From an uncultured Gemmatimonadaceae bacterium (GTDB lineage: Bacteria; Gemmatimonadota; Gemmatimonadetes; Gemmatimonadales; Gemmatimonadaceae), in contig CAWHHI010000009.1 of the NCBI GenBank assembly GCA_963829055.1, positions 64,001 to 128,000 on the forward strand: DNA of 64,000 nucleotides, given 5' to 3'. The translations under genes were made by a program, and so were the position numbers. Below are positions 1 through 64,000 of the stretch, one piece after another. Within the stretch, counting starts at the first letter, position 1; each line of letters starts with the position of its first letter. The notes under the pieces are model-generated. The model saw only the letters and a list, made by a program, of their open reading frames with translations, was not told the DNA's origin and ran no database searches.

Positions 1-105
1 ACTCATCCACTGTCTAGCAGAAGTGCAGAGGCACATCTGACGCGTCCGCTGCCGGACGTCGTCAGCGCAACCGAGCCGGACAAGCCGCACCCGACGAGTC
101 GAGCA

Positions 106-1524
106 ATGCAGAACCTCCGCCGTCATGCCTGGCGGGCCGGTCGGCGCATTGTCGCACTGATCGGCGTCGACGCTGTCTGTTTCCTGCTTGCCCGCGCGAT
201 CACACGACAGTTGGCGGAGACGCCATTCGGAAACGCTGCGGCGGTCGCGGGTATCCTCCCATCGAACGTTGGGTCGAGTGAGCTCGCACTCGCCGTCGCC
301 ATGTTCGTCGGCACCGCGATCTCCGGGACGTATGGTCCCGGGGACGCACGGCGGCATGTCGGGAGGTTGTTCCTCGCAGCAGCGCTGGCGAGCGCCTTAC
401 CGCTCTGGAGCAGTCTCTGGACTCAGCAGTCAGCCGGTGCGTTGCACACGTGGTTCGTCGTGTTCGCGCCGCTGTTCATCATGCTGGTCGCATTGCGAAC
501 CGTGTTCGATGTGCTCGTCCAACGCTGGTCGAATCGTGCGGGCACTACGCGCGCACGAACCGTACTGATTGGCACGGCGAGCGATTGCCTCGCGCGCCGC
601 GAGTGTGATGTCCTCACGCGCCGGTCAGGGTTCGAAATGCTCGGCTTCATAGACGTCTCAGCACGCCAACATACGGCTGCCCTTGGCGTCGTGACCGACA
701 TCGAGCGCCTCCTCGTCGAGCACGACGTCGACACCGTGGTCTTCTGCGGCTTCCCCAACTCGGCCACCACGAGTCGCGTGCTCCGCGCCGCGGCGGTCTC
801 GGAGTGCACGGTTCTGGCTTCCGCGCCGCAGTTCGAGCTGCCATCGGTTCGGCCCAACGTCATAAAGCGAGGAGGCCAACCACTGCTCGAGCTCCGTCCG
901 GTCGCGCTTCGCGCGGAACAGCTGATCGTGAAGCGCGCGATGGACCTCATTGGGTCGACTGTCATCCTGGTCTTGCTCGCGCCTGTGCTCGCTATCGTAG
1001 CGGTGATGGTGGCGCTCGACACACCGGGGCCGGTCATCTTCGTCCAGCGCCGCTTGGGGCGATATGGTCGTCCCATCCGCTGCTACAAATTCCGCTCGAT
1101 GCATCGCGATGCGGAAGCGCAGCTGCTGAACGACCCGGTGCTATACCGCCGATACGTCGAGCATGACTACAAGCTGCCGGAGTCCATCGACACGCGTATA
1201 ACGCGAATCGGGCGCTTTCTGCGGCGTACCAGCCTCGACGAGCTGCCGCAGCTCTGGAACGTGTTCAAAGGCGAGATGTCGCTCGTCGGTCCGCGCCCGA
1301 TCGTGCCAGACGAGATCCATCACTACAACGGTGAGGGCCCGCTCCTTCTGACCCTCAAGCCTGGACTGACTGGAGCGTGGCAAGTGGGTGGGCGCTCGTG
1401 CGTCGGTTACCCCAAGCGCGCCGCGGTCGAGCTCGAGTACGTCGAAGGTTGGAGCCTCTGGGGGGACATCGGGATCCTGCTCCGCACCTTTCCCGCGGTG
1501 CTGGCCACGCGTGGCGCACACTAA
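106..1524 (+). CDS. Priming sugar transferase (WcaJ/WbaP-like polyprenyl glycosylphosphotransferase)
   Basis: N-terminal TM helices, a Rossmann-like RTVLIG segment, and a C-terminal Bac_transf domain (KRAMDL...YKFRSM...[26 protein letters not shown]...[10 protein letters not shown]). Confidence 0.93.
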
Positions 1525-1579
1525 CGACACCAGTGCCGAGCCCATCAGTAATGAGCTCCAGGAGTTGTACCGCGCCCCC

Positions 1580-2503
1580 ATGGGCGAACCACGCATTTCC
1601 ATTGTCATAGTCTCGTATAGCCGCGCCGACGAGATCGAACACTGCCTCGCTGACCTGGCCGCGCAGCGCACCACGGTGAAGTTCGAGGTGTTGCTGCTGC
1701 TTCAGGCGTATCCTCGAGACGCTACCGACCGGTTGGTCAAGACGTTCTCTCACGCCTTTCCGCTGCACGTATTTCACGCGACGCAGGGGCTGGGCGTGCA
1801 CGTCGCGAGAAACGCGGCGCTCGCGCGGACATCCGCCGACATCATCGCGTTCCTCGATGACGACGTCCGTGTGCCGACGGACTGGGTCGAGTCGCTCGCA
1901 CCGTACTACGAGGACTCCTCGGTCGGCGGGGTCGGCGGCTTCGTGAGACATCCGGGCAGTCAGCGCGTCATCACGCGGGTGTTGCGCCCGGTACTCGGCC
2001 TTTCTTCACGACGCTACCGGATCGACTGGGGTGGCTTTCACGCGATCCCGTGGTCGTCGCATCCGTCACGCGACCAGGAGGCGGACTGGCTCTCGGGATG
2101 CAACATGTCGTTTCGCCGAGTGGCGCTCGAGCAGGTTGGCGGCTTCGATGAGGGGTATGGACGCTACGGATACAATGACGTCGACGTCAGTCTCCGCGTG
2201 CGTCAGGCGGGGTGGCGTCTCGTCTCCACGCGTCGGCTCGCCGTCAATCACTACCCGAGCGCCATCAACCGCGCCGCGCTTCCCGATCTCATCCGTGAGG
2301 AGGAGGCGCGGCGGGTGCGACTCGTCAGGCGCGCGATCGGCAACCGGCCCGCGTGGCGCGCTCGATATCTCGCGCGGTTCGCCTACCATTTGATAGCGCT
2401 GTCTCTGCAAGGGATCGCTCGCGGTTGTCCATCGCTTCCGCTTCGCGCGATGGATGGTGCTCGTCGTGGGCTGGCGCTATACGGACGAAACGGGGCGGCG
2501 TGA
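1580..2503 (+). CDS. Glycosyltransferase family 2
   Basis: ATG at 1580 (MGEPRISIVIVSY); ARNAAL...IIAFLDDD (DxD motif); GCNMSFRR...GGFDE. Confidence 0.9.
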   Translation: MGEPRISIVIVSYSRADEIEHCLADLAAQRTTVKFEVLLLLQAYPRDATDRLVKTFSHAFPLHVFHATQGLGVHVARNAALARTSADIIAFLDDDVRVPTDWVESLAPYYEDSSVGGVGGFVRHPGSQRVITRVLRPVLGLSSRRYRIDWGGFHAIPWSSHPSRDQEADWLSGCNMSFRRVALEQVGGFDEGYGRYGYNDVDVSLRVRQAGWRLVSTRRLAVNHYPSAINRAALPDLIREEEARRVRLVRRAIGNRPAWRARYLARFAYHLIALSLQGIARGCPSLPLRAMDGARRGLALYGRNGAA

Positions 2504-3795
2504 GTGACGAGCGCCGGAGCCTGGCGGACTGGTGGGCCGCACCCGCGGCTCCCTACATCGCCGCCGTCGCGGTGCGGACCGCGGCCCGCGCGGCATGGGG
2601 GCTGGCGCTGCCGACGCTGCTCACGGTTGCTGCCTACGGCAGCTATCAGGTAGTTGCGACGACGGCGGCAATGGCCGCCCAGCTCGCCTTGTTAGGCGCA
2701 CCGCAGACGATTGTTCGCTACGCTGGCCGTCGGCTTCCGATGCGCTTCCTCGTGCTGCATTCGGTTGCGCTCGCTGCGATCGCGATCGGCGCCGCGGCGG
2801 CATTCATACCTCGAACGCGCACACCGGCAATGCTCGGAGCGCTGGCGGCGGTGTCCCTGGCTACGCTCGGTGCGACATTGTTCGGCGCGCGAGCGAAGGC
2901 CCGCTTCGCGTTCGGCACGTCACTCCGCGCCGAGTTGGGCGGAGCGGTGGTATTGGTGGTCGCGGCAATCGTCGCTGTCGCGGGCATCGCGCGCACGGTG
3001 ATCACGCCCGGTGTCGCGCTGATGGTGGAATCGATTGCCCTTGGCGCGACCGCGGTGGTTCTCCTCCGAGCGCGCGACAGTCGAGCAACGACGACATCGA
3101 CGTCCAATGCGGCGCAGCCATCACCGCCTGTTCGACGCATGCTCGCCGACATCTACTCGGTCGGCGCCCTCGTACTGCTCGACGTCGTGCTGTTCCGGCG
3201 TCTCGAGGTGTACTTCCTCGAGCGCTCGCCCGACGGCCTCGTCGGCGTCGCCGTGCTCGGCTTGTCGCTGCAGATCGTGTCGATCGCGCTGCTCGTGCCG
3301 ACCGCGTTGCTCGAGACGTGGCAGCCGAGGCTCGCGCTTGCCCAGCACAGTGGCGGTGACGCCGGATTCGAGCGCGAGTTCGCGCGCCGGGGGAAGTGGT
3401 TCGCGCGCCTCATGGTCGGCGTTGTGCTGCTTGGCACCGCCGTTCCCCTCGTTGCGGTGCCACTGGTGTTTCCGCGGTACAGCCCGTGGTTAGGCTACAT
3501 CGTCGCGTTCGTATTCATCCGGCTCGCGTGTGCTGGCGCAGGCTTCTACTCGTCCGCGCTCTACGCAGCGGGCCGTCATCGCGCGCTCTATGCGCCAGCC
3601 GTCGTCGCTGTGGTGATCGCGATCGCGGGGAACGTGGTGTTCACCCGTCAGCTGGGGCTGCGCGGTGCGCTGGTCGCATACGGGGCGACGCAAGTGACGG
3701 TGGCGGTGCTCACGGTCGCCGCGTTCTACCGCGCGTCGACTCGAGTTGGCGCGGGGACGACACCGGAGCCCGCCGAGGCTCGGATAGTTGCCTAA
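2500..3795 (+). CDS. Polysaccharide flippase-like membrane protein (Wzx-like)
   Basis: GTGA overlap with the upstream stop; about 12 hydrophobic segments; located in a polysaccharide locus. Confidence 0.7.
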   Translation: MSDERRSLADWWAAPAAPYIAAVAVRTAARAAWGLALPTLLTVAAYGSYQVVATTAAMAAQLALLGAPQTIVRYAGRRLPMRFLVLHSVALAAIAIGAAAAFIPRTRTPAMLGALAAVSLATLGATLFGARAKARFAFGTSLRAELGGAVVLVVAAIVAVAGIARTVITPGVALMVESIALGATAVVLLRARDSRATTTSTSNAAQPSPPVRRMLADIYSVGALVLLDVVLFRRLEVYFLERSPDGLVGVAVLGLSLQIVSIALLVPTALLETWQPRLALAQHSGGDAGFEREFARRGKWFARLMVGVVLLGTAVPLVAVPLVFPRYSPWLGYIVAFVFIRLACAGAGFYSSALYAAGRHRALYAPAVVAVVIAIAGNVVFTRQLGLRGALVAYGATQVTVAVLTVAAFYRASTRVGAGTTPEPAEARIVA

Positions 3796-3854
3796 CGGCT
3801 CGGGTTGGCTATAGGCGTCATTCTCACGGGAACGTAGATCGCGGCTGGGCGCAA

Positions 3855-4269: not shown

Positions 4270-5313
4270 TCAACGATTGGTTCCCGCCAGTGATGGCGCA
4301 TCGCGATGGCTCGGCTCCGGTAGCCCGTTCGCCTCGCCGTTTCCGCTCGCGCCCTCGGGCAGCCGCCGCGTGAAGTCACCTTTCGCGAACAGCACCAGCG
4401 TCGCGACGAGCAGGCCAAGCGCGGTACCCAGCACGAGCTTGAGTGGAAGCCGGAGCGGGTCCGGCAAGAGGCGCGACGGAACGGAGTCGACCACCACCAC
4501 CGCGGGCGTCTCTTCCAGTTCGCGCGCCCTTGCCGTTTCGTAGTCGGTGCGGGCCTGGCTGTATACGGTCTGTGCGTCTTGCACTTCACGCTCCACCTGC
4601 TGACGCGACATCGCGGCGGTCGAGAATTGCGTGTACGCGCGGTTCGCGGAGAGAAATGACACGACGCGCTCCTCGGCCCGTCGCAACTGTCGCTCAGCGC
4701 TGTCCACCCGCTCGGCCTGAGCAACGCGCTGACTCGTCGCCTGCGCGCGGCTCACTCGCACGAACGTGTTACTCGCCGCTTCGACCAGGTGGTTGGCCAC
4801 CTGACGGACGACGGCGCTATCTGTGTGCGACGCACGGAGGGAGATCAAGCCCGTCTGCTTGTCGACTTCGGCGGCCAGGATGTCGCGCATCCCCGGTTCG
4901 ACTTGCGTGGGGCGGATCTTCGCCGCCGGACTCTCGAGGACCCGCTCGATCACGGTGCCGCCGCGCGCATCGGCGACGCGCTCCGACGCTACCTGCATGA
5001 TCACACTGCGCAGCAGGAGGAGCTTCGCGATGAAGTACGGCGTGGACTGGACGCCGCCGAGCTGAGCTTGCCCCAGGATCGCCGTGATCCCGCCCGAGAG
5101 CGAGGCTTGCCGCGCGTTAGGCACCGCCGCGAGCACGACCGACGCAGTGTACCGGCGCGCCGGGATGAGTGCGACCGCGAGCGCGAGCCCCCATGCGGCC
5201 ACGCAGATCGTGAGCACGAGGCGCCAGCGGCGGCGGTACGGCCGCACCAGTGCACCGAGCGGCAGCTCGGGATCGGTCTGCGGTACGAGGGCAAGCGAGG
5301 TATCACGCGGCAT
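4270..5313 (-). CDS. Polysaccharide chain-length determinant (Wzz/GNVR-like)
   Basis: Two TM helices flanking a coiled-coil region; RRYTASVVL near the N-terminus; Pro-rich stretch before the C-terminal TM. Start taken as MPRDTS. Confidence 0.82.
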   Translation of the reverse strand: MPRDTSLALVPQTDPELPLGALVRPYRRRWRLVLTICVAAWGLALAVALIPARRYTASVVLAAVPNARQASLSGGITAILGQAQLGGVQSTPYFIAKLLLLRSVIMQVASERVADARGGTVIERVLESPAAKIRPTQVEPGMRDILAAEVDKQTGLISLRASHTDSAVVRQVANHLVEAASNTFVRVSRAQATSQRVAQAERVDSAERQLRRAEERVVSFLSANRAYTQFSTAAMSRQQVEREVQDAQTVYSQARTDYETARARELEETPAVVVVDSVPSRLLPDPLRLPLKLVLGTALGLLVATLVLFAKGDFTRRLPEGASGNGEANGLPEPSHRDAPSLAGTNR

Positions 5314-6469
5314 AACGACAGTCGGACCGGTAGAGAGTGACGAGGCGATCGACCATGCGACCGATCTCGAAATGGCGAGCCTGCACGCGAGAAACGATGC
5401 GAGCGGCGCGAAGCGATTCGGGACGTTCGATGAACGCGCGTGCGGCCCCAGCGAGCGCTTCGGGCGTAGCGGCGGAGACGATCTCGCCGTTGCGTCCGCT
5501 GACGACACAGTCGCTCGCGCCGCCCACGGACGTGGTTACGATCGCACACCCCGCGTCCAGCGCTTCGAGCATCACGTACGAGAATCCCTCGTAGCCGCTC
5601 GTGACGAGCAGGATGTCGACTGCCGGAAGCACGTCGCGCCCGATCGCGCCGCGAAGCCAGCGCACGTGCGCGCTCAGCCCGGCTTTGTCGAGCGCCGCGG
5701 ACACGGCCGGCGCCTCGGGACCGTCTCCAGCGAGTACGAACCGGAGCGACGGGTAGGCGAGATGCAGGCGACGAAACGTCTCGACCGCGAGCAGCGGCGC
5801 CTTCTGCGGCACGAGTCGTCCCATGAAGCCGACGGTGATCTCGGCGTCGGTGATGCCTAACGACGAGCGCGCGAGCGCGCGCGCCAGATCGAGCGCCTCA
5901 TCGGAGCGCACGTCGATGCCATTCTCGATCACCGTCAGCTTGTGGTCCGGAATTCCGAGCGACCGGGCCAACAGTCGCTCCTCTCGCGACGTCGCGATCA
6001 CGCGATCGGTCGCGAGGGCCAGCCCATACTCGGCCAGGCCGTACAGCCGTCGCGCGACGGCCGACAGCGCTGGCGCCTGCGCGTAGAATGCATGCGGCGT
6101 GTAGAACACGCGCCGCGCACAACCCCAACGGGCGAGCCGGGCGAGCGCGCCGCCTTTTGCGCTGTGGCCGTGCAGCACGTCCGCGCCGCCGAATGCGCGG
6201 ACGGCACGCCGCAGCTGCAACGTGCCCACGACATCGTGCGGGCGCGGCGCGCGATGGACATCCACCCGCGCGAGCTCGTAGCCGTGGTCCGCGTGACGCG
6301 ACAGCCGTTCAGCGAAATCCGGTTCCGCGCGGCGGGTGGAGTGCACCACGAGCACCTCGAACCCGAGCTGCGGCAGTCGCTCCGCGACGTCGAGCACGTG
6401 CTTCCCGACGCCGCCGCCGGCAGCCTCGCACACGAGCACCACGCGCATCAGATCGCTCGAGGTGGTCAT
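5303..6469 (-). CDS. Glycosyltransferase family 4
   Basis: GGGVGKHV, HGHSAKGG, FMGRLVPQK and EGFSYVMLEA (EX7E motif). Confidence 0.92.
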   Translation of the reverse strand: MTTSSDLMRVVLVCEAAGGGVGKHVLDVAERLPQLGFEVLVVHSTRRAEPDFAERLSRHADHGYELARVDVHRAPRPHDVVGTLQLRRAVRAFGGADVLHGHSAKGGALARLARWGCARRVFYTPHAFYAQAPALSAVARRLYGLAEYGLALATDRVIATSREERLLARSLGIPDHKLTVIENGIDVRSDEALDLARALARSSLGITDAEITVGFMGRLVPQKAPLLAVETFRRLHLAYPSLRFVLAGDGPEAPAVSAALDKAGLSAHVRWLRGAIGRDVLPAVDILLVTSGYEGFSYVMLEALDAGCAIVTTSVGGASDCVVSGRNGEIVSAATPEALAGAARAFIERPESLRAARIVSRVQARHFEIGRMVDRLVTLYRSDCRYAA

Positions 6470-7299
6470 GCGGTCACCAGATCGGAGCGGCGGCTGCGCA
6501 TGGCCTTGATAGCGACGATCCACGAATACGGGATCGCGAACCTGCCTAACGTTTTGGCGACGCCGAACCAGCTCTCCCACGTCCCGGGCCGGAAGTACGC
6601 GAGCTGGATGCGCAGCGTGCTGCGAAGCTGTTGCCGACGACGTCGCATCGAGAGCCCCTGAGGATCGAAGCGAGTCACCAGGAGCGTCTCGGCCAGGTTC
6701 GCCACTCGATGCCGTCGAGCGATCCGCCAGAACAGCTCGTAGTCCTCGGCCGCCGGATACGCCGTGGAGTACACGCCGACGGTATCGATCACACTCGTGC
6801 GAAACATCACCGCCGGATGGATCAGTGCCGTGGTGTGGTGCATCGTGCGCACGATGTCGTCATGCGCGGTGGGTAGCTCGCGCACGAATCGCACGCGTCC
6901 GTCGTCATCGCGCCACTCTACGGCCGAGCCGACGAGGTGGACGTCGCGATGCGCGTCGAGATAGTCGCGCTGACTCGCGAGGCGCCCGGGAGCACATCGG
7001 TCACCGTTGTCGAGCCGCGCGATGTACGCGATGCCGCGGCGGCGGATGTAGTCGAGTCCCGTGTTCAGCGCCCGCTCGATGCCGCGGTTCGCATCGTGAC
7101 GCAGGATGACGATCTCGACCCCAGCCGAGTCCGCATCGCAGGCGAGCGGCGGCGTGCTTCCGTCGTCGACGACGACAGCCACGATGGGAACGCCCTGATC
7201 GCGCAGCGACCGAAGCGTGCTCGTTAGGAGGCCGCTGTCGTTGAACACCGGAATCAGCACGGCGACCGTCTCTGGCGCGTCCGTCATCTGCCCGGTCAC
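6466..7299 (-). CDS. Glycosyltransferase family 2
   Basis: VAVLIPVFN, VVVDDGS, ARLDNGD, HPAVMFR, AEDYELF. Confidence 0.92.
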   Translation of the reverse strand: MTGQMTDAPETVAVLIPVFNDSGLLTSTLRSLRDQGVPIVAVVVDDGSTPPLACDADSAGVEIVILRHDANRGIERALNTGLDYIRRRGIAYIARLDNGDRCAPGRLASQRDYLDAHRDVHLVGSAVEWRDDDGRVRFVRELPTAHDDIVRTMHHTTALIHPAVMFRTSVIDTVGVYSTAYPAAEDYELFWRIARRHRVANLAETLLVTRFDPQGLSMRRRRQQLRSTLRIQLAYFRPGTWESWFGVAKTLGRFAIPYSWIVAIKAMRSRRSDLVTA

Positions 7300-8606
7300 G
7301 GTGTTGCGCCACTGTGTTCACCGCTGCTCACGCCGGACTGCAGCCCGTACACGAGCCACAGCAGCGCGTCGACACCGGTGAACTGGATCGCGCCCGCCAC
7401 GAAGTACCCGGCGACGAACAGCAGCAGATGATCGCGGAAGCGGGTGGCGAAGACGCGGCGCGCCACGGACACAGCGAGCACCAATAGCGCGAGTAATCCC
7501 GGGATGCCCGTCTCCACCGCGTGCTGCAGGTAGATGTTGTGCAGGTTGTCCTCGGGGACGTCGACACCGAGGACGCGTCGCAACGTCGGCACTGCATTGC
7601 CGACGCCGACGCCCAGCGGGTATTCCGCGAACACGCGGAGCCCGCCGCGCCAGAGCATCATGCGGCCCAGCGAACCCGGCTCCTCGCCGATGGTCGAGAA
7701 GCGTTCGGCAACGTACGACGTGTCGCCGTACTGGCGCACTCTCGCCATCGCCCCCGCCATGACGACTACCGCTGCCGCTCCGACCGCGACGCCGAACAGG
7801 CGAGACCAGCGACGCCTAACGAAAGCGCGCGGCGACAGGTCGACGCGTCCAGCGCGCCGGCCGCCCCAGGCAAAGGCGATCGCAGCGCAGGCGGCCAGGC
7901 CGGCGATCACGAGACCGGCGCGGCTCGCGTACAGTGCGCTCGTGGCCGCGGCCGTCAGCACGAACGGAACGAACCACGCGGAACCTATGAGGAACACGGA
8001 CGACAGGGCGAGCCACGTCGCCTCCAGATTGAGCCCACCGCCGGACAGCGTGGGCACCTCCGGGTGCCCGAGCGGGCTGGCCAGATACGCGATGAAGGCC
8101 GGGATATGTTGCGTGTTCTTTGCAGTGACGAGCAGCAGGAACGCGACGCTCGCGACGCGGCACGCGCGGATGACGACCGTCGCACCCGCCGCGCGGCCGA
8201 CGCCGCCGGCAACGAGCGCGATGTAGAGCGAGATGAGCAGCTTGACGCCCGCGACGCGCGGCTCGTTGACGCTGTACGCGAGCAGTGTGGCCGCGGTCAT
8301 CACGGCGAAGTAGAGTAGTAACTCGGTCCGCGGACGTGCGATCCGTCCGCGGAAGACGATGACCGCGCCAGCAAGGAGCAGGGCGGCGTGGTAGAGTTTG
8401 GGTGTCGCGCCCGCATCGTCCGCTACGAGGGCGCCGGAGATGGTCACGGCGCTTGCGAACGCGGACACGACGAGCGTGGACAGCAGGGCCGTCGCCGTCC
8501 AGGGACGGAATCGTGCTGGATTCGTCATCCGCGCAGGCGTGACGTTCGGCGGGACCCCGAGGTTCATCTTTCCAAGCTCCTTAGTCGCTCCGAGCGACTC
8601 GGACAC
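7296..8606 (-). CDS. O-antigen ligase / Wzy polymerase family protein
   Basis: Polytopic membrane protein with ASRAG, R-x-x-LW...PLGVGVGN and HNIYLQ...ETGIPG (Wzy_C signature). Start uncertain. Confidence 0.85.
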   Translation of the reverse strand: MSESLGATKELGKMNLGVPPNVTPARMTNPARFRPWTATALLSTLVVSAFASAVTISGALVADDAGATPKLYHAALLLAGAVIVFRGRIARPRTELLLYFAVMTAATLLAYSVNEPRVAGVKLLISLYIALVAGGVGRAAGATVVIRACRVASVAFLLLVTAKNTQHIPAFIAYLASPLGHPEVPTLSGGGLNLEATWLALSSVFLIGSAWFVPFVLTAAATSALYASRAGLVIAGLAACAAIAFAWGGRRAGRVDLSPRAFVRRRWSRLFGVAVGAAAVVVMAGAMARVRQYGDTSYVAERFSTIGEEPGSLGRMMLWRGGLRVFAEYPLGVGVGNAVPTLRRVLGVDVPEDNLHNIYLQHAVETGIPGLLALLVLAVSVARRVFATRFRDHLLLFVAGYFVAGAIQFTGVDALLWLVYGLQSGVSSGEHSGATP

Positions 8607-49139: not shown

Positions 49140-49527
49140 CAGTATCCCGACGTTCACCTAACGCTGGAGGCACCGGCCCGCGCCCGTTCGGGCGAGCCGG
49201 TGCCTCTCGTTTTAACGGTCACGAACACCGGCACCGCTGTCCGTGACGTTGCAGCTCCTCGGCCGGAAACCCACCGCCGACTTCCGCATCTCGGACGCAG
49301 ACGGCCGCCCAATCTGGACTCGCCTTCGCGGCCAGACGATGCTCGGCGCGCTTCGCCTCTATCCGCTGGATGCAGGAAAGGCACTCGTATTCCGAGCGGT
49401 GTGGGATGGGCGTGACGACGGTGGAAGCCTGGCGCCGCCGGGCGAGTACCTGATCCGCGGCGTGCTACTGACTGACGACCCCGGAGGGCTGCCTTCCTCG
49501 CCCCTCCGGCTGCGCGTTGACGCCTAA
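49140..49527 (+). CDS. BsuPI-like putative proteinase inhibitor (start uncertain; frameshift near 49243)
   Basis: GEPVPLVLTVTNTG...DFRISDADGRPIW...VWDGRDDGG...PPGEYLIRG. Confidence 0.65.
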
Positions 49528-49545
49528 CGCCTCCGGGATCGACGC

Positions 49546-50598: not shown

Positions 50599-50775
50599 CG
50601 TTCTACTCCTCGCCAATGCTCACTGTGCGTCGACCGCGACCGCCGCGGGTTGCACGGGAGGATGGTACGCGCGCGTGCCACGCGGGCGTATCTGGCGACT
50701 GGCCGATCTTGTCCCTGACGATGGTTGGGTCGGGCGCGTCGCGACGCGCCATGCGTCGCCTAACGAACCGGAATG

Positions 50776-52248: not shown

Positions 52249-54904
52249 TCAGTAATTGAACGTCAGGTTCACACCTAACGTCCGTGGCTGGTTCGTGAGG
52301 TATCCTACACGAGCTCGCGTTCCACGCTCGCGGTCGAGCGACAGCAACGCCCGCTCGTCCGTGACGTTGTTGAGGAACAGCGCCGCTTCCCAGCCCGGTC
52401 GCGTGATCGCCAAGGCGCAGGTTGACCAGATTGTACGCCGGTAGCTCCGGGTCCCACGTGAACGTCGACGCCGTCAGCGGCCCGCCGATCGTGTTCGGCG
52501 CGAACGAGTTCAGGTCGAGCACGCCGAAGCCCGCCGCCTCGTCGTCGATCTGCGTGAAGCGCGAGCCCACGTAATTGTACGTCGCGGTGAGGAACCCGTC
52601 CGACCCCGACCGCAGCGGTCGATGCAGCGTGACCGCGGCCGCGCCCTGCACCTCCGGCACGCTCGGAAGCCGGTTGCCTTCCTCGATGCCCGACACGACG
52701 CTGACCTCCCCCGTGGAGCTCGTCGAGGTCAGGGTGGACCGCAGCTCCGCGTTGTTGAGCGTTCCGGTCAGCGCGAAGTCGAAATACTTGTTAGGTGCCG
52801 CCGTGAGCTCGAGCTCCAGGCCCTGGCTCACCGACTTGGGCACGTTGAAGACGAGCCGCGACGAGCACGAGCCCGCGGTCACGATCAGCTGCAGGTCGCG
52901 AATGTCCATGTAGAACGCGGACACGTTGAGCGACGCGCGCCCATCCATCCACTGGGACTTGGCGCCGACCTCGTAGTTCCACGCCGTCTCGTTCTCCCAC
53001 GACTCTCGACCGCTGAACGTCGCGAGATCCGCCGCCGTGCACAGCGGCACGTTGAGCGGGTCGTTGATGCCGCCGAGTCGGAAGCCCTGCGACGCCTGCG
53101 CGTTGAACGTGAGCCGGTCGTTCGCCTTGAAGCTGGCGATGACGCGCGGAGCGAAGCCGTCGGCGCTCGTGGACCCCGGCGTCGACACCACCGACGTTCC
53201 GGTATTGTCGTTCGCGAAGATGCCGTCGAAGACCTGCTCGCGATCCTCGTTGAAGTTGTAGTAGCGCAGCCCACCCGTGAGGTCGAGCCGGTTCGTCAGG
53301 CTCACCGTCGCTTCGCCGAACACCGCGGTCTGCCTGAGGTCGTACGACAGGTCGGAGTAGAACAGCACATCGGTCGGAGCGATGAGTCCCTTCGTGGGAA
53401 CGCCGGAAGCGGCCTCGAACCCGGACACGTCGAGGCTCTGGCCGTAGTCACGCAGGCTCTTGCTGAAGAAGCCCCCGACGAGCCACCGCGCGCGGCCGCC
53501 CCCACCGGCAAGGCGGAGCTCCTCGGTCACGACGTGACCCTTGGTCGCGTCATCGAGCGGCGAATTGAGCGTGTAGACGTCCTCGGGAAGACCGATGCTG
53601 CCACCGGTGATGCTCGACGTCAGTGCACCGGCGTCGCGCACCACGAGGATGTCGCGGTAGCTGTAGGACGTGACCGACGTCAGGTTCGCCTTCCCGAAGT
53701 CGTACTTCATGTTGAGATCGCCGAGCGTGTAGTTGTCGGTGAACGGCTCGGGGATCTGCGTGAACAGCTCGCGCTCACCTAACGTGACGGGAGGGCGCGT
53801 CGTGGTGTAGGGGTTCGCGAGAATGTTGTACGCGTCGATGCGGTTCCAGCCGTCCGCGCGCACGGTCTGGTAGACGACGCGCGGCGTGATGGTGAATCGG
53901 TCGTTAGGCTGGAACTGGAGCGCGGCACGCACACCGGTGCGTGTGCCGCTGTTCACGTTCTTCTCGACGCGCAGGCTCGGCTGCACCGCGTCCATGTAGC
54001 CACCGAGCTGGTTGTAGTACAACGCCACTCTCCCCGCCGCCCTGTTGCCGATCGGGACGTTCGCGCCGAGCTTGACGTTCGCGCCGATGCCACCACTGAG
54101 AACCTGGCTGGTTCCGACCTCGCCGAACGTGCTGCGAAGTCCGAGCTCCGGCTGGTTCGTGATGTAGCGGACCGTGCCCGCGAGCGACCCCGAGCCGAAC
54201 AGCGTGCCCTGTGGCCCACGCAGGACTTCGACGCGCGAGACGTCGAACAGGTCGAGGTCCGGCGTGAACAACGACAACGAGATGGGCGACTCGTCGAGGT
54301 AGACGCCTGCCTGTTCCTTGACCCCGGGTTGGTCACGCGCGATCTGGCCGGCAGACGCACCGCGGATGGCGACCTGGCTCTGACCGGGCCCGAGGTTCTG
54401 CACACTGAAACCAGCGACGTTCGTCGAGATGCCCTCGATGTTCTCCACTCCGCGCGACCGCAGGTCAGCCGCCGTCGGCGCGGCAACGGAGAAGGGGACG
54501 TCGGCCAGCTCCTGCTCGCGGAGCGTCGCGGTGACGGTGATCGCCTGGAGCGGCAGCGCCTGCAGCGTTAGGTCCACCGTCACGTCCTGATCGACGCGCA
54601 CGTCGGTGCGCGTGGTCCTTCGAAAACCGATCAGCGACGCGGAGACGGTGTAGGTGCCTGACGAGAGACCCGTGATGGTGTACGCACCATCAGCGCGCGT
54701 GGTCGTGCTTCGGGTGACGCCTGTCGCGTTGTTAGTGGCCCTGACCGTCGCCGCTTCCCGCGGGACGCCACCCGAGTCGCTCACTACCCCAGAAATGCGG
54801 CTGCTGCCGGGGGTCTGCGCGAGTGCGGGCGCAATGGCGGGGATACAGAGGAGTGCAGTCGTGAGCGCGACGAAGCTCGAGCACCGGCGAACCAGACAGA
54901 GCAT
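52249..54904 (-). CDS. TonB-dependent receptor with N-terminal carboxypeptidase-regulatory-like domain (frameshift near 52410)
   Basis: ITVTAT TonB-box-like motif; RVEVLRGPQGTLFG plug; the true C-terminus NNVTDE...PRTLGVNLTFNY-TGA is in an alternate frame. Confidence 0.92.
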
Positions 54905-54978: not shown

Positions 54979-56208
54979 TCAATGACGGACCGCCGGACGC
55001 TTAGTGGCGCGCCTAACGGCGGTCTCCTTGCGAGCTCGTCCGTTCTGGCGTGCGTGCTTGGCAGGCTCGACCAGTTTCCAGAACTGCCCCTCGCCAATCA
55101 CCTTCACGGCGTGGCCGCGCGCGGCCAACCGGCGGATCTCCATGAGCTTGAGACCTCCAACCGTGCCGGCGACCTGCAACGCGTTAGGTCTGCCGCGCAC
55201 CAGCACGTCCGTCGCCGAGCCAGGCTTGGACTGCACGACCGCGCCCGCCTTCCTCGCGGCGGCGATGGCTTCGCTCCTCGGACGGCTCAGGAATCCCGTG
55301 AAGGACACCCGCTTCCCGACCAGGCTTCCGACGCGACCGAGATGAAGCTCCGTCGGCCGTTGCCGAAGGGCCGCAATGAGCTCGCCCGCGGCTTCGTAGC
55401 GCTTTCCGCGTACGCCAAGGCATCGGTGGATGACTTCCTTGAGGTGGTCGCTGCACGGCAGGCCGCGCACGTCACGACTGCGCATCGGGCTCGTGATGTC
55501 GCCACGCAGCAGCATCGCGGCGATCTGCCCTATCTGATAGATGTCGTCGCGCTGCTGCCAGCGGCGGACCTTCCCCCACGCGATCTCCGTCGGCGCATTG
55601 AAGACGTTGAACGCGTCAGCGGTGACGCCACGTCGGCTGAGCTGATGTGTCGCGATACCGAAGTCGCCGAGCTTCAACTGCTCGTCACCGCAGACGAAGA
55701 CGTTGAACGGCGTGAGGTCGCGGTGCATCGCCTGCCCACGATGCACGACGTCGAGCGCGCGCAGGATGGCCGCGATCTCACGGCGCACGAACCGCTCGGA
55801 CTGCGCGCCCTTGCGAGCGAGCCAGGCGCCGAGGTCCCCGTGTTCCGCGTATTCCATCGCGAGGCAATACCGCATGCGCGACCCATCGACTTCGGCGAAC
55901 CGGTCATACACGCGAAGCGCGCGGGATTCTCGGCCGAGCAGCTCGGCGAAATACGCCTCGCGAAGCCACGCCGTGAGGCGATCGCTGATCTTGATGCAGA
56001 CCTGCTCGGGGAGGTCGTCGCGCGGTGTGGGCGTGGCGAGATACACCTCGCCAAACCCTCCCTTGCCGATCAGCCGGTCGAGTCGGTACGTGCGACCGCT
56101 CTCGTAGCTATAGGCTGTCGGGGCCGTCCCCGGGGAGGAAAGCGCGGCCGGCGCGGCCGCCCCATTGTCCTTGCTGTTCTGCGGAGAAAGTGGGCGGTGC
56201 GTTGCCAT
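54979..56208 (-). CDS. Ser/Thr-kinase-like protein with C-terminal BRCT domain
   Basis: GKGGFGEVY, VCIK, HRDLTPFN, DFG; C-terminal LVGKRVSFTGFL...GAVVQS...TDVLVRG...KVIGEGQFWKLV. Confidence 0.85.
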   Translation of the reverse strand: MATHRPLSPQNSKDNGAAAPAALSSPGTAPTAYSYESGRTYRLDRLIGKGGFGEVYLATPTPRDDLPEQVCIKISDRLTAWLREAYFAELLGRESRALRVYDRFAEVDGSRMRYCLAMEYAEHGDLGAWLARKGAQSERFVRREIAAILRALDVVHRGQAMHRDLTPFNVFVCGDEQLKLGDFGIATHQLSRRGVTADAFNVFNAPTEIAWGKVRRWQQRDDIYQIGQIAAMLLRGDITSPMRSRDVRGLPCSDHLKEVIHRCLGVRGKRYEAAGELIAALRQRPTELHLGRVGSLVGKRVSFTGFLSRPRSEAIAAARKAGAVVQSKPGSATDVLVRGRPNALQVAGTVGGLKLMEIRRLAARGHAVKVIGEGQFWKLVEPAKHARQNGRARKETAVRRATKRPAVRH

Positions 56209-63118: not shown

Positions 63119-63188
63119 GCCGGCCCGTCGCCGCCGAGGTGTAAGCCGCGTTAGGCGCGCTGGGCCGCGGTGAAAGACGGCACGGTGG

Positions 63189-63292
63189 TCACGAGGCGGG
63201 GTCGTCGAGCTCGCGCGTCATCTCGATCATCGTGCGGCGGAAGCCCACCCTCGCGAAGAGCCGCTGCGCGGGGTCGTTCTGCTCGGCCGTCG
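63189..63292 (-). pseudogene. GNAT acetyltransferase C-terminal remnant
   Basis: Minus strand reads TAEQNDPAQRLFARVGFRRTMIEMTRELDDPAS-TGA with no upstream coding part. Confidence 0.6.
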
Positions 63293-63472
63293 CGGATTAC
63301 AGAGGTGCTCCCAGCGCGCGTGCGGGAGAATAGCCGCCCCCAAGCTGTATAGTTGGCTTGGCGGATTAGTCGTTAGGGCCGACGACGTTCGGGAATGGAG
63401 ACGTCTGACCCTCGGTCCTGGTTCCGGCGTCGAGGAGCGCGACGGCGGTGGCAAATGTCGTATGCCGAAGAC

Positions 63473-64000
63473 TCACGGCTGGTATCGCTTGTAGATGATC
63501 GGGTTCGTCGGAAGCTTGTCGCGGTCAATGATCACGCCGTCCTTGATCACCATCCGGATCTTCCGGATGTTCTTGATGTCCTGGAGCGGATCCGCGTCGA
63601 GCATCACCACGTCGGCGATCTTCCCCCGCTCGATCGTTCCTAACGAGTCGCCCATGCGATGAGGCAGGGCCTTCGCGCCGTTCTTCGTCGCGGCGACGAT
63701 CGCCTGCGCCGGCGTCATCCCGAAGTCCACGAGCGATTCGATCGACGCCAGCGTGCCGATGCCGGGCTCTCGCGCGCCCCACTGGTTCGGGTCGCGCGAG
63801 AACTCGATCGCCTGGGCCACCTGGTTGTCCGTTGCCGTCGTGATGGGGCAGCTCGTCTTCACGATTTTCTGGGCGTTGGCGCGCATGACGCGCGCGTTCG
63901 TGGCGCGGATCGAGTCCTCGATCATCTTCTCGGTCATCTTCGGCTTCGGCCAGCTGCGAAGCTCCGTGGGCTCCTTGTTCGCCCCCGCACCTCCAGCGCC
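63473..64000 (-). CDS. Amidohydrolase family protein, C-terminal part (5' end outside the window)
   Basis: ATDN, GMTPAQAIVAATKNGA, LGTIERGKIADVVMLDADPL...VIKDG. Confidence 0.88.
   Translation of the reverse strand, partial: GAGGAGANKEPTELRSWPKPKMTEKMIEDSIRATNARVMRANAQKIVKTSCPITTATDNQVAQAIEFSRDPNQWGAREPGIGTLASIESLVDFGMTPAQAIVAATKNGAKALPHRMGDSLGTIERGKIADVVMLDADPLQDIKNIRKIRMVIKDGVIIDRDKLPTNPIIYKRYQP

Follow-up and report, generated by a model that had tools for sequence, protein, structure and literature searches.

The question raised by this locus is why one short word, CCTAAC or its complement GTTAGG, recurs throughout a stretch of Gemmatimonadaceae DNA, mostly inside genes. We counted the word in the window, the whole 64-kb stretch of DNA analysed, and in the host genome, that of a soil bacterium, and compared related genomes.

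Copies of the word in the window

The window contained 62 hexamers (34 on the plus and 28 on the minus strand), the same figures as in the preliminary description, whereas 100 dinucleotide-preserving shuffles gave a mean of 6.45 and a maximum of 14. The heptamer CCTAACG/CGTTAGG, earlier put at about 52 copies, was found exactly 52 times (27 plus, 25 minus; shuffle mean 3.17, maximum 9), and the earlier zero-order expectation of about 7 heptamers was arithmetically correct. All 13 positions given there as examples were present in our hexamer list. The 62 copies comprised 35 full octamers (GCCTAACG), 17 other heptamers and 10 hexamers only, with the core consensus yGCCTAACGm. Two heptamers of similar composition were rare in the window (CCTAAGG, 0; CCATACG, 3) and genome-wide (65 and 474, respectively, vs 6,391 for CCTAACG). 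Genes were assigned by a crude gene call made in this analysis, which placed 40 of the 62 copies within called genes, in line with the earlier statement that copies are embedded in genes; at 3795 and 49527, as described earlier, a TAA within the word serves as the stop codon of a gene. Sixty copies are listed here (position, strand, setting); each is a full octamer unless another form and its context are given, and "outside" means outside called genes.

2691..2696, -, hexamer, GCCTAACA; antisense, gene 2500-3795, Leu-Leu-Gly (TTA)
3489..3494, -, hexamer, GCCTAACC; antisense, gene 2500-3795, Trp-Leu-Gly (TTA)
3791..3796, +; TAA 3793-3795 is the stop of gene 2500-3795
5116..5121, -; sense, gene 4270-5313(-), Pro-Asn-Ala (CCT AAC GCG)
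5856..5861, +; antisense, glycosyltransferase gene 5303-6469(-), Ser-Leu-Gly (TTA)
6545..6550, +; antisense, glycosyltransferase gene 6466-7299(-), Thr-Leu-Gly (TTA)
7223..7228, -, heptamer, TCCTAACG; sense, glycosyltransferase gene 6466-7299(-), Leu-Leu-Thr (CTA)
7815..7820, +; antisense, Wzy-like gene 7296-8606(-), Val-Arg (GTT AGG)
12004..12009, -; sense, polysaccharide export gene 10381-13002(-), Pro-Asn-Gly
12806..12811, -; sense, polysaccharide export gene 10381-13002(-), Gly-Leu-Thr (CTA)
15114..15119, -; outside
15571..15576, +, hexamer, GCCTAACA; antisense, GntP permease fragment 15279-15578(-)
17239..17244, -, heptamer, CCCTAACG; outside
17993..17998, +; outside
19040..19045, +; outside
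19702..19707, +; antisense, weakly scored ORF 19482-19949(-), Pro-Leu-Gly (TTA)
21206..21211, -; sense, peptidase S9 gene 20657-21478(-), Pro-Asn-Ala
21694..21699, -, heptamer, ACCTAACG; outside
22225..22230, -; outside
23008..23013, +; sense, AraC/GyrI-like regulator gene 22966-24048(+), Pro-Asn-Ala
23935..23940, +, hexamer, GCCTAACA; sense, AraC/GyrI-like regulator gene 22966-24048(+), Pro-Asn-Thr
24833..24838, -, heptamer, CCCTAACG; antisense, amidase fragment 24098-24955(+), Val-Arg
25683..25688, -; sense, weakly scored ORF 25431-25790(-), Pro-Asn-Ala
25957..25962, +, hexamer, GCCTAACA; sense, dehydrogenase fragment 25801-26364(+), Pro-Asn-Lys
26384..26389, +; outside, 20 bp past gene 25801-26364
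31243..31248, -; outside
31600..31605, +; sense, ORF 31361-31699(+), Ser-Leu-Thr (CTA)
32865..32870, -; sense, M19 dipeptidase gene 32001-33080(-), Pro-Asn-Val
34144..34149, +, heptamer, ACCTAACG; antisense, Ser/Thr kinase gene 33169-35556(-), Val-Arg
36168..36173, +; outside, just below gene 36189-37130(-)
36661..36666, +; antisense, gene 36189-37130(-), Ala-Leu-Gly (GCG TTA GGC)
37692..37697, +; outside
38547..38552, +; sense, end of ORF 37921-38556(+), Cys-Leu-Thr (CTA)
39286..39291, +, heptamer, TCCTAACG; sense, gene 38998-39531(+), Pro-Asn-Val
39527..39532, +; TAA 39529-39531 is the stop of gene 38998-39531(+)
40009..40014, +, hexamer, GCCTAACA; TAA 40011-40013 is the stop of ORF 39687-40013(+)
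40760..40765, +, heptamer, ACCTAACG; sense, gene 40301-41131(+), Pro-Asn-Ala
40993..40998, -, heptamer, CCCTAACG; antisense, gene 40301-41131(+), Ala-Leu-Gly (TTA)
41709..41714, +, hexamer, GCCTAACA; antisense, ankyrin-repeat gene 41141-42115(-), Leu-Leu-Gly (TTA)
42901..42906, +; sense, AstE/AspA-like gene 42202-42999(+), Pro-Asn-Ala
44352..44357, -, heptamer, CCCTAACG; sense, CoA-transferase/beta-lactamase-fold gene 43385-45850(-), Ala-Leu-Thr (CTA)
44798..44803, +; antisense, CoA-transferase/beta-lactamase-fold gene 43385-45850(-), Val-Arg (GTT AGG)
46133..46138, +, hexamer, GCCTAACA; outside, at the low end of gene 46134-46694(-)
47415..47420, -; sense, weakly scored ORF 47082-47639(-), Pro-Asn-Ala
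48751..48756, +, hexamer, GCCTAACA; outside
49157..49162, +, heptamer, ACCTAACG; outside
49523..49528, +; TAA 49525-49527 is the stop of ORF 49243-49527(+)
49916..49921, -, heptamer, ACCTAACG; sense, luciferase-like monooxygenase gene 49546-50598(-), Asp-Leu-Thr (CTA)
50759..50764, +; outside, intergenic
51385..51390, -; sense, FAD oxidoreductase fragment 51231-51953(-), Arg-Leu-Thr (CTA)
52274..52279, +, heptamer, ACCTAACG; antisense, TonB-dependent receptor gene 52115-54904(-), Val-Arg
52790..52795, -, hexamer, ACCTAACA; sense, TonB-dependent receptor gene 52115-54904(-), Pro-Asn-Lys
53778..53783, +, heptamer, ACCTAACG; antisense, TonB-dependent receptor gene 52115-54904(-), Thr-Leu-Gly (TTA)
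53903..53908, -; sense, TonB-dependent receptor gene 52115-54904(-), Pro-Asn-Asp
54567..54572, -, heptamer, ACCTAACG; sense, TonB-dependent receptor gene 52115-54904(-), Asp-Leu-Thr (CTA)
55012..55017, +; antisense, kinase gene 54979-56208(-), Val-Arg
55183..55188, -, heptamer, ACCTAACG; sense, kinase gene 54979-56208(-), Pro-Asn-Ala
63150..63155, -; outside, 32 bp past gene 62078-63118
63372..63377, -, heptamer, CCCTAACG; outside
63639..63644, +, heptamer, TCCTAACG; antisense, gene 63473-64969(-), which runs off the window end

Genome-wide excess and codon usage

Genome-wide, the octamer was present in 5,004 copies in 7.78 Mb, against Markov expectations of 131 (order 1) and 258 (order 3), a 19- to 38-fold excess, and the word ranked first at k = 6, 7 and 8 under both models. 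Shuffling synonymous codons within 5,200 confident genes gave 296 +/- 15 heptamers compared with 3,784 observed, so that the enrichment persisted under a codon-aware null. The rare-codon embedding described earlier was borne out, as 58% of TTA, 21% of CTA, 14% of CCT and 9% of AGG codons lay inside the word. The word occupied 1,094 of 1,780 P-N-[AVGDE] tripeptides (61.5%) and 1,499 of 5,321 [ATSP]-L-G tripeptides (28%). Relative to the reversed control, P-N-[AVGDE] was 1.7-2.0 times as frequent in three motif-rich genomes; in two motif-poor genomes, for which the samples were small (9,080 and 22,477 residues), the ratios were 0.3 and 0.9. A directional force thus pushes the word into genes, overriding codon bias and raising the frequency of the encoded peptides.

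In confident genes, 219 of 678 TAA stops lay inside CCTAACG and 164 of 1,354 TAG stops inside CGTTAGG. Inside genes the word occurred at 0.5-0.9 per kb, but its density rose to 2.05 per kb over the final 50 bp of a gene and was 1.67 per kb over the 50 bp that follow. Copies therefore accumulate at the least-cost sites, namely stop codons and positions directly downstream of genes. Terminator-like inverted pairs were not found, opposite-strand pairs 50-100 bp apart numbering only 42. Beyond positions -1 to +2 the flanks of the copies carried zero information, indicating a compact word. Three islands of 31-48 kb, classed as foreign or chimeric DNA, had no copy at all.

Orientation and spacing

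The absence of clear strand bias noted earlier holds genome-wide: 2,457 octamers were on the plus and 2,547 on the minus strand, counts were equal on every contig, and 1,815 copies in confident genes were sense and 1,969 antisense. Local orientation was likewise unskewed in 143 windows, each of 50 kb (z-score sd 1.07, largest |z| 2.66). The word is read as duplex DNA; its orientation is irrelevant and unlinked to the direction of replication or transcription.

Copies were evenly spaced, at about one per kb in genes, and under-dispersed (coefficient of variation 0.71 in genome G014 and 0.65 in G001). Gaps shorter than 200 bp numbered 408, compared with 978 expected. Occupancy of [ATSP]-L-G tripeptides rose with distance to the nearest other copy, from 2.9% below 50 bp through 8% (50-100 bp), 17% (100-200 bp) and 29% (200-300 bp) to 36-38% at 300-1,200 bp, and the P-N-x and R-L-T classes showed the same trend. 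This short-range exclusion was equal for same-strand and opposite-strand neighbours. The force saturates per DNA segment, a new copy seldom being added beside an existing one.

Distribution among relatives

The word was present in all seven genomes of the genus and in many other Gemmatimonadaceae genera, as expected of the lineage-specific genomic signal proposed in the preliminary description. In a sample of 301 family genomes, many genera were hyper-abundant in the word and others nearly lacked it, and within one genus (g59) it switched on or off between two subclades (G070, G170 and G258 rich; G128, G283 and G305 with almost none). Among 80 sites not shared by G000 and G001, 19 differed at one position and 61 at two to five; word gains were multi-substitution and mostly synonymous, for example Leu CTC to TTA. 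Shared sites numbered 14 within the genus (2.7 expected) and 7 between genera (3.4 expected), the latter with no excess within tripeptide classes. Positions thus turn over between genera while the word itself is unchanged. The presence of genes for an integron integrase, DNA methyltransferases, ComEC, PilM or ComEA did not track the word's abundance across genomes; a check for co-occurring methyltransferase, competence or IntI genes had been proposed earlier. No published description of the word was found in the literature searched.

Relation to integron attC sites

The match to the integron core consensus pointed out earlier proved literal, because the word is the R box of attC sites in the host order, which open with GCCTAACG and close with GTTAGGC or GTTAGAC. 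One array, in G027:C95, carries 23 such starts on a single strand within the initial 20 kb of that sequence, with three more in the 20 kb after that. Two real attC sites, holding the remaining two copies, lie in the window:

28168..28266, -; attC (integron cassette recombination site), about 99 nt; R'' GCCTAAC(G) 28266-28260, R' GTTAGAG; the TAA of R'' is the stop of ORF 28261-28812(-); includes word copy 28260-28265
29485..29582, -; attC, 98 nt; R'' GCCTAAC(G) 29582-29576, R' GTTAGAC; the TAA of R'' is the stop of ORF 29577-29855(-); DNA fold -29.8 kcal/mol; includes word copy 29576-29581

The dispersed copies are not attC sites. Their flanks lack an L box or second arm, and attC-like hairpins gave only 14 strand-specific matches genome-wide (about 9 distinct) from 334 candidate pairs. 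Other RYYYAAC-type words found in attC sites (GTCTAACG, 24; GCTTAACG, 24; GCCCAACG, 254) were all at or below expectation. The copies could still be half-sites or secondary targets of the integron integrase, spread or kept through integron recombination, and G000 encodes such an integrase (C20:208041-208958; 265.7 bits vs a cut-off of 265). However, of 41 relatives, the 24 with an integrase above the cut-off were mostly motif-poor, and within g59 it occurred in the poor G128 as well as the rich G070 and G258; the richest genome, G014, has only broken integrase pieces. Integrase chemistry is not known to leave an octamer footprint. This candidate of the preliminary description is weakened, and we regard it as very improbable.

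Discussion

The copies in the window are best explained as local instances of a self word of Gemmatimonadaceae, yGCCTAACGm, that is lineage-specific and extends across the genome. That the excess arises artefactually from composition, from codon or peptide usage or from assembly has next to no probability: the assembly contains many split genes and differs from independent contigs by single-base indels, but the codon-aware null falls short by 13-fold, the control words are rare, no copy in the window falls at a split point, and hyper-abundance recurs in independent assemblies of many genera, some of them 99-100% complete in 4 to 60 contigs. A polar guide motif of the Chi (RecBCD/AddAB) or KOPS (FtsK) kind, which a high-frequency octamer missing from foreign islands might suggest, is ruled out for practical purposes by the lack of skew, since orientation is random everywhere and exclusion is alike for both relative orientations; moreover, known excesses of Chi or KOPS fall far short of 19- to 38-fold.

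As Elhai's model proposes for HIP1, the word might be created and kept by a mismatch-repair bias that is linked to methylation or otherwise sequence-specific, CCTAAC being a methyltransferase site. CCTAAC resembles MmeI- or BREX-type adenine methylase sites in form, and there is a gene for a conserved, MmeI/PglX-like protein with an Eco57I domain (about 1,100 residues). Copies that deviate by one nucleotide mostly do so at either end of the octamer (ACCTAACG, 827; CCCTAACG, 428; GCCTAACA, 435), the inner hexamer being strict, and the same pattern has been reported for HIP1 (PMC4390886). Nevertheless, two motif-rich genomes, G070 and G258 (96% and 98% complete, respectively), lacked any PF01555 or PF00145 match, and PF02384 matched only the N-terminus of the MmeI/PglX-like protein. 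That protein occurred in rich and poor genomes alike (25 of 26) and followed the genus tree; 0 of its 1,072 alignment columns separated rich from poor. Local repair bias does not predict that one copy suppresses another 50-300 bp away, and single-mismatch repair is hard to reconcile with two to three substitutions per site. The methylation or repair candidate is thereby weakened and appears improbable. Alternatively, a chromosomal protein that organises the nucleoid, loads in condensin-like fashion or acts in repair or surveillance may bind or nucleate at the word, with selection keeping about one per few hundred to thousand bp and no role in DNA entry. Orientation-independent exclusion, under-dispersed spacing, within-genus site retention above chance and the scarcity of one-off variants of the inner hexamer, as for a strict site under purifying selection, agree with this, as does the argument that HIP1 is under selection and tied to chromosome structure (PMC5861425). 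Against it, about 5,000 sites of small effect would be difficult for selection to sustain, conservation of positions between genera does not exceed class propensity, congeners of rich genomes in g59 are almost without copies, and there is no known candidate protein. We consider it unlikely.

Of the four candidates put forward earlier (uptake sequence, methylation or repair, nucleoid-protein site, secondary recombinase target), an uptake sequence is the best fit, and a DNA-uptake process seems to account best for the word's properties. We tentatively suggest that the word is a duplex-DNA self tag kept by saturating, segment-level drive, most like DNA uptake sequences. Own-species fragments with the word would be bound and imported in preference to others by the type IV pilus/ComEA/ComEC competence machinery, then recombined; molecular drive would thereby spread word-creating alleles until nearly all fragments have a copy. 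Competence machinery is encoded (ComEC in 40 of 41 genomes, PilM in 37 of 37, a ComEA-like protein in 5 of 5), in motif-poor genomes as well, so its presence explains nothing of the on/off pattern. No receptor or reader-protein candidate was found, nor, in the literature searched, any work on uptake sequences in Gemmatimonads. Several findings count against uptake, among them the lack of terminator-like inverted pairs. Decaying uptake sequences usually leave many near-matches, whereas one-off variants of the inner hexamer were at or below background. The exclusion zone (<200-400 bp) is shorter than typical uptake fragments, so uptake fits only if effective fragments or recombination tracts are short. 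A chromosomal protein needing one site per stretch would fit segment-level saturation equally well.

The word resembles the self tags by which some bacteria recognise their own DNA. HIP1 is now proposed to be an uptake sequence (PMC13756078), and a proteome roughly doubled in uptake-sequence tripeptides has been described (PMC2817400). Neisseriaceae have dialects of their uptake word, whereas no alternative dialect word was found in two motif-poor Gemmatimonadaceae relatives. According to PMC7811141, uptake signal sequences (USS) of H. influenzae are about 1 kb apart with relatively even spacing, are under-represented in newly acquired segments, and give no added uptake when two lie within 100 bp. 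The Gemmatimonadaceae word parallels them in its even spacing of about 1 kb, its short-range exclusion and its absence from the foreign or chimeric islands.

Over-representation of the word

Hexamer CCTAAC/GTTAGG occurred 62 times in the window (34 on the plus strand and 28 on the minus strand), compared with a mean of 6.45 in dinucleotide-preserving shuffles, and heptamer CCTAACG/CGTTAGG occurred 52 times (27 and 25), compared with 3.17. None of the 100 shuffles approached either count. The preliminary description had reported a dispersed motif of this kind, and every coordinate that it quoted was found in the list of hexamer and heptamer matches. Alignment of the flanks revealed that the hexamer was mostly preceded by G, and the core was therefore taken as octamer GCCTAACG (hereafter, the word). 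The window copies comprised 35 full octamers, 17 other heptamers, and 10 with the hexamer only; in 9 of these 10, the final letter was A in place of G.

In the source genome, GCCTAACG occurred 5,004 times and CCTAACG 6,391 times. The expectation for the octamer was 131 under an order-1 Markov model and 258 under an order-3 model, and either model placed the word at the top for k = 6, 7, and 8. A maximal-order Markov ranking missed it because its sub-words were inflated too, and the order-1 and order-3 models exposed it. CTAA tetramers fell within CCTAAC in 7,103 of 8,933 cases. Synonymous codons were shuffled within each gene, so that the word's own rare codons stayed in the pool; this null gave 296 ± 15 heptamers and 129 ± 15 octamers, compared with 3,784 and 3,003 observed. 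The reported use of rare codons was also borne out, as 58% of TTA, 21% of CTA, 14% of CCT, and 9% of AGG codons lay inside the word. Control heptamers were scarce: CCTAAGG had no copy in the window and 65 in the genome, and CCATACG had 3 and 474, compared with 6,391 genomic copies of CCTAACG. The excess survived both Markov and codon-aware nulls, and thus the enrichment did not vanish in the ways that the preliminary description had allowed for.

A profile of 7,103 copies showed that the information was confined to positions −1 to +2 (y, G in 79%, CCTAAC, G in 90%, m); outside these positions, just the 3-base ripple of coding sequence was observed. One-letter deviations were tolerated at the outer letters (ACCTAACG, 827 copies; CCCTAACG, 428; GCCTAACA, 435; 5–17 times expectation) and at the third letter (GCATAACG, 583; 4–8 times). 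None of the remaining inner-hexamer changes exceeded expectation in this genome, the transitions GTCTAACG, GCTTAACG, and GCCTAATG having 24, 24, and 13 copies. In a 200-kb sample of relative G010 (loci L153–L162), the one-off GCCAAACG had 52 copies (6.7 times expectation), more than the 26 of GCCTAACG (7.4 times); GCCAAACG could be a variant word in the genus of G010.

Assembly and copy-free islands

The source assembly has 7.78 Mb in 20 contigs with a G+C content of 66–67%, and the neighbors of its RecA were metagenome-assembled genomes of Gemmatimonadales/Gemmatimonadaceae with 81–90% amino-acid identity. Several genes in the window were split, including those of a GntP permease, an amidase, and an FAD oxidoreductase.

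Split genes and indels in the window
15279–16349
24098–25316
37185
46074–46216
46710–46765
47243
50776–51953

Compared with the window, short-read contigs from soil and rhizosphere were missing single bases, at positions shared by 3–4 runs. Since independent contigs agree in these single-base deletions, the assembly contains indel errors, and these disrupt reading frames. Over window positions 32001–50000, the contigs of four soil and rhizosphere runs represented related strains with 1,198 differences; the stretch with the word was present in 20 runs from 16 studies. The window also holds an exopolysaccharide/capsule gene cluster (106–13002) with a sugar transferase, several glycosyltransferases, a Wzy-like polymerase, a Wzi fragment, and an SLBB/Poly_export protein of 873 aa.

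Three islands of 31–48 kb, all at contig ends (loci L189–L196), contained no copy of the word.

Islands without any copy in the source genome
Contig C6, 6854–55038
Contig C6, 591809–623330
Contig C11, 7377–44055

They encode FtsK, chorismate synthase, tryptophan synthase, DAHP synthase, glutamine synthetase (GlnA), and GreA. The islands probably stem from an organism without the word, either through chimeric joining or as DNA of that organism; given their location at contig ends and their housekeeping genes, assembly chimerism may explain them and not acquisition.

Position of the word in genes

Genes were called with a home-made codon and dicodon score, which covered 76% of the genome because of the many frameshifts in the assembly. 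For this reason, a position outside called genes is not necessarily intergenic, and coding statistics were limited to 5,200 confident genes (5.2 Mb). As one strand of the word contains TAA and the other TAG, four frames are open, and all four were occupied.

Copies of the word by reading frame in confident genes
xCG-TTA-GGx, Ala/Thr/Ser/Pro-Leu-Gly, 1,499 copies
CCT-AAC-Gxx, Pro-Asn-x, 1,094 copies
xxC-CTA-ACG, x-Leu-Thr, 721 copies
xxC-GTT-AGG, x-Val-Arg, 470 copies

The word filled 61.5% of Pro-Asn-[AVGDE] tripeptides (1,094/1,780), 28% of [ATSP]-Leu-Gly (1,499/5,321), and 28% of Arg-Leu-Thr (288/1,028). Relative to the reversed control, Pro-Asn-[AVGDE] was found 1.7–2.0 times as often in three genomes rich in the word, and 0.3 and 0.9 times in two poor ones, for which the samples were small (9,080 and 22,477 aa). 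The word also contributed stop codons, with 219 of 678 TAA and 164 of 1,354 TAG stops lying within it. Its density was 0.5–0.9 per kb inside genes, 2.05 per kb in their last 50 bp, and 1.67 per kb in the following 50 bp; copies thus gather where their cost is least. A role as an off-frame ("ambush") stop was rejected, since any stop codon would do and the word was enriched between genes too.

Orientation and spacing

The octamer was balanced between strands (2,457 plus and 2,547 minus), with equal counts on each contig. When orientation was scored in 143 windows of 50 kb, the z-scores had a standard deviation of 1.07 and a maximum of 2.66; neighbors shared orientation in 3,293 of 6,371 cases, and 1,815 copies in confident genes were sense and 1,969 antisense. 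Strand skew was absent at all scales examined (contigs, 50-kb windows, and neighbor pairs). This equality excludes a polar motif of the Chi or KOPS type, for which a skew co-oriented with replication was looked for and not found, as well as any role at the RNA level.

Copies avoided one another at short range. Gaps below 200 bp numbered 408, compared with 978 expected from an exponential distribution, and gaps of 400–1,500 bp were in excess. The occupancy of [ATSP]-Leu-Gly by the word was 2.9% when the nearest other copy lay within 50 bp, 8% at 50–100 bp, 17% at 100–200 bp, 29% at 200–300 bp, and 36–38% at 300–1,200 bp. Occupancy likewise climbed with distance from 18% to 72% for Pro-Asn-x and from approximately 4% to 39–48% for Arg-Leu-Thr. 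The exclusion was equal for same-strand and opposite-strand neighbors. Samples of relatives G014 and G001 had spacing CVs of 0.71 and 0.65 with mean gaps of 555 and 984 bp, respectively, and the width of the exclusion zone scaled with the mean gap. Such distance-dependent exclusion is not predicted by a bias of mutation or repair that acts only locally; it is predicted if one copy is needed per stretch of duplex.

Distribution and turnover

All seven genomes of the source genus had 2,501–5,112 copies, compared with approximately 250–370 of the reversed control word. We surveyed a sample of 301 Gemmatimonadaceae genomes from 77 genera; unpublished genomes G013, G055, G056, G154, G268, G286, G313, G355, and G382 were counted in the distribution tallies only. 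Hyper-abundance was observed in many genera. All seven genomes of genus g9 had 4,115–6,360 copies in 3.1–5.1 Mb, G209 (genus g72) had 7,821 in 6.1 Mb, and genera g58, g59, g65, g72, g83, g50, g38, g79, and g16 were also rich. Rich genomes that look complete included G061 (4 contigs) and G183 (6 contigs). Many other genera had few copies, fewer than of the control word, and the range across the 77 genera was graded, up to 1.3 per kb. G014, of another genus and with 62% G+C, carried this very word once per 570 bp and with identical flank preferences. Among 161 sampled genomes of the phylum, comparable abundance was not seen outside the family; one genome of a sister-family genus had 726 copies (control, 293), and three of another family had 177–561. 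Among approximately 12 Gemmatimonadota loci fetched by RecA, locus L005 alone had several copies. No alternative abundant word was found in samples of poor genomes G007 (200 kb) and G016 (112 kb).

Within genus g59, five genomes had 3,244–4,141 copies and three had 66, 8, and 4. The rich group consists of G070, G170, G202, G231, and G258, and the poor group of G128, G283, and G305. A quick IQ-TREE phylogeny with SH-aLRT support, built on a conserved MmeI-like protein, placed the rich and poor genomes in two sister subclades, and at least 3 changes of state in abundance were required across the 20 genomes of the tree, in which the row of G053 is a mis-picked long ORF with a very long branch.

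Alignments between G001 and the source genome (117 kb, median identity 80%) contained 64 shared sites, 37 found in G001 only, and 43 found in the source only; an arbitrary heptamer was identical in 25% of cases. Of the unshared sites, 61 of 80 differed at 2–5 positions, most commonly with Leu CTC where the other genome had TTA. We further examined tripeptides permissive in both species, using ORFs of at least 200 aa at 8 of 20 G001 loci. Of 110 such tripeptides within the genus, 14 had the word in both species, compared with 2.7 under independence. For pairs from different genera, the numbers were 7 of 114 and 3.4, and this excess disappeared once tripeptide classes were separated. Positions are thus kept between close relatives and re-drawn between distant ones, while the word stays constant.

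Integron sites

The preliminary description had noted a fit to the integron core, and indeed the word matches, letter for letter and with one further base, the R'' box that attC (the cassette recombination site) has in this bacterial order. In poor relatives, the few copies were clustered on one strand approximately 600 bp apart. Those of G027 contig C95 formed classical attC sites (GCCTAACG ... GCTTAAGCTG ... CAGCTTCAAGC ... GTTAGGC); on this contig (1–24000; loci L173 and L174), 23 GCCTAACG attC starts lay on one strand in the first 20 kb and 3 in the next 20 kb. Large chromosomal cassette arrays were also present in poor relatives on G027 contigs C43 and C80 and G025 contig C3, with very uniform attC sites of approximately 100 nt.

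Among the window copies, the folding inverted repeat R''-L''...L'-R' was found at two sites.

attC sites in the window
28168–28266, minus strand, TAA is the stop codon of ORF 28261–28812 (minus strand), no Pfam match
29485–29582, minus strand, TAA is the stop codon of ORF 29577–29855 (minus strand), no Pfam match

The surrounding region (26400–31700) is a small gene cassette cluster of lower G+C content (0.61–0.64) with no integrase nearby; its small minus-strand ORFs without a Pfam match lie at 28261–28812, 28873–29439, and 29577–29855. Elsewhere in the source genome, locus L198 (contig C20, 198001–218000) carries an integron integrase at locus positions 10041–10958 (minus strand) and an attC-like site at 7101–7191; upstream, 11 of 13 word copies lay on the plus strand, unlike in the rest of the genome.

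The flanks of the 7,103 dispersed copies were random, with no L boxes and no partner arm, and a search of 334 candidate pairs in the source genome gave 14 strand-specific hits, amounting to approximately 9 distinct attC-like hairpins. Of the variants that also fit RYYYAAC, GTCTAACG (24 copies), GCTTAACG (24), and GCCCAACG (254) did not exceed expectation; nor was there enrichment of GTCTAAC, which is complementary to GTTAGAC, an R' box used by attC. An integron integrase exceeded the cut-off in 24 of 41 relatives whatever their word abundance, including both rich and poor g59 genomes. With these random flanks, few hairpins, unenriched variants, and an integrase whose presence did not track abundance, the dispersed copies are not attC sites and do not resemble integrase products.

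Search for a reader protein

None of the candidate determinants tested tracked word abundance by presence or absence. ComEC was found in 40 of 41 genomes, including the source, PilM in 37 of 37, and a ComEA-like (HHH_3) protein in 5 of 5, poor genomes being included in each case; the competence core therefore did not discriminate between rich and poor. Rich g59 genomes G070 and G258 had no PF01555 (N6_N4), PF00145 (C5), or separate PF02384 (N6_Mtase) enzyme, and the sole methylase-like gene left encoded an MmeI/PglX-like Eco57I-domain protein of approximately 1,100 aa. This protein was present in 25 of 26 family genomes, rich and poor, and followed the genus tree; its alignment had no column separating the two groups.

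Across these 25 genomes, the MmeI/PglX-like protein (approximately 1,050–1,200 aa, loci L205–L224) had approximately 50% identity, and such conservation along the genus tree is unusual for a restriction-type enzyme. The copy in the source genome (contig C8, 73545–76749, L229) was broken into at least 5 frame pieces. The sole presence/absence difference seen was a large HHH_3 protein, found in poor genomes G128 (C164), G283 (C325), and G305 (C618) as frames of 531–822 aa with 94–101 bits and not found in the two rich g59 genomes searched. Its size fits a Tex-like protein, and it is probably unrelated to the word.

Interpretation

The word acts at the level of the duplex, is blind to orientation, belongs to particular lineages, and is installed against codon bias. 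The directional force behind it becomes saturated within each segment, and the positions of the word turn over. The nearest known process is the molecular drive of DNA uptake sequences, and by this analogy we tentatively favor uptake-type maintenance, at somewhat less than even confidence: DNA carrying the word would be taken up preferentially, and copies would spread until segments were saturated. The even spacing of approximately 1 kb and redundancy of close pairs described for Haemophilus (PMC7811141) run parallel to our observations. The rarity described there in new DNA may have a counterpart in the copy-free islands, and the rise in encoded tripeptides (PMC2817400) may have one in Pro-Asn-[AVGDE], for which our poor-genome samples are small; for HIP1, the other octamer of such abundance, a function as an uptake sequence was proposed very recently (PMC13756078). 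Against an uptake-type drive stand the short range of exclusion, the lack of dialects in two poor relatives, the few near-matches, and the lack of a receptor candidate. A chromosomal binding site kept by selection is a rather unlikely alternative reading of the word. Methylation or repair as the driving force appears improbable, as G070 and G258 lacked the methylase families tested, the MmeI/PglX-like protein occurred in rich and poor genomes, and local repair bias does not predict saturation per segment. A link to the integron integrase is the most doubtful of these four, given the random flanks, unenriched variants, and presence of integrase in rich and poor genomes alike. It is very unlikely, though conceivable, that a DNA-entry or self tag became fixed to equal the attC R box, through a shared reader or through transformation favoring word-bearing cassettes. 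Were this so, natural transformation would be coupled to cassette capture in a soil phylum, and genomes with the word at every gene end would be a possible nursery of new cassettes.

To our knowledge, hyper-abundant self words with a proven reader are limited to two proteobacterial families, with HIP1 a third, still debated case; with a new such word in the Gemmatimonadaceae, whose members are widespread in soil, the phenomenon would reach a new phylum. The graded abundance and the switch between sister subclades of g59 are near-ideal for phylogenetic profiling of a reader, and the unusually clean, quantifiable saturation per segment narrows the mechanism. For metagenome bins of the family, the word also serves as a sharp marker that sets own DNA apart from DNA that is foreign or mis-assembled, and its identity with the integron R box suggests a testable tie between self-recognition and gene-cassette traffic.

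Comparison with known systems

The attC R box (RYYYAAC ... GTTRRRY) resembles the word in that the TAA inside is often a stop codon, as in gene cassettes; unlike attC, the dispersed copies lack the hairpin, L boxes, and partner arm, and integrase presence does not track abundance. Chi and KOPS share octamer length and a chromosome-wide role marking own DNA, whereas the word has no strand skew and a far larger excess.

The uptake sequences of Neisseriaceae (DUS) have the core GCCGTCTGAA, and those of Pasteurellaceae (USS) are AAGTGCGGT and ACAAGCGGT; the Neisseria receptor with matching specificity is a ComP-type minor pilin. Like the word, DUS and USS are short, non-palindromic, and present approximately once per kb in both orientations. 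According to PMC7811141, USS of H. influenzae lie approximately 1 kb apart and fairly evenly, are scarce in newly acquired DNA, and give no added uptake when a second copy lies within 100 bp; according to PMC2817400, tripeptides encoded by uptake sequences are approximately doubled. The word is similar in its relatively even spacing and the redundancy of a nearby second copy, in occupying permissive frames of genes, and in being common to related genera. It may also resemble them in raising the encoded tripeptides (small poor-genome samples here) and in being rare in foreign segments (here, copy-free islands that may be chimeras). The competence machinery (type IV pilus, ComEA, and ComEC) is encoded, also in poor genomes. 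The word differs in being 8 bp only, without flanking AT tracts, extended consensus, or inverted terminator pairs; two poor relatives had no dialects, and inner-hexamer near-matches were not enriched. Our literature search found nothing on Gemmatimonad uptake sequences and no description of transformation in the phylum, a search with the word's sequence matched only primers and unrelated constructs, and the main text of Davenport and Tummler 2010 mentions neither the word nor the phylum.

HIP1 (GCGATCGC) is a palindrome with known cognate methyltransferases, whereas GCCTAACG is asymmetric and not its own reverse complement, and none of the three common families of DNA methyltransferase that were tested occurs as a separate enzyme in rich genomes G070 and G258. 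The abundance of HIP1 follows that of type IV pilus genes, whereas PilM, ComEC, and ComEA-like proteins occur here in rich and poor genomes alike. In PMC5861425, PMC4390886, and PMC13756078, this cyanobacterial octamer is described as 15- to 300-fold over-represented, occurring approximately once per gene, kept between related genomes, and varying by lineage, with exceptions nearly without it. After a long time without an assigned function, it was lately proposed as an uptake or transformation sequence (PMC13756078). HIP1 and the word are alike as over-represented octamers that are shared by related genomes, depend on lineage in their abundance, and tolerate one-letter deviations at the first and last letters.
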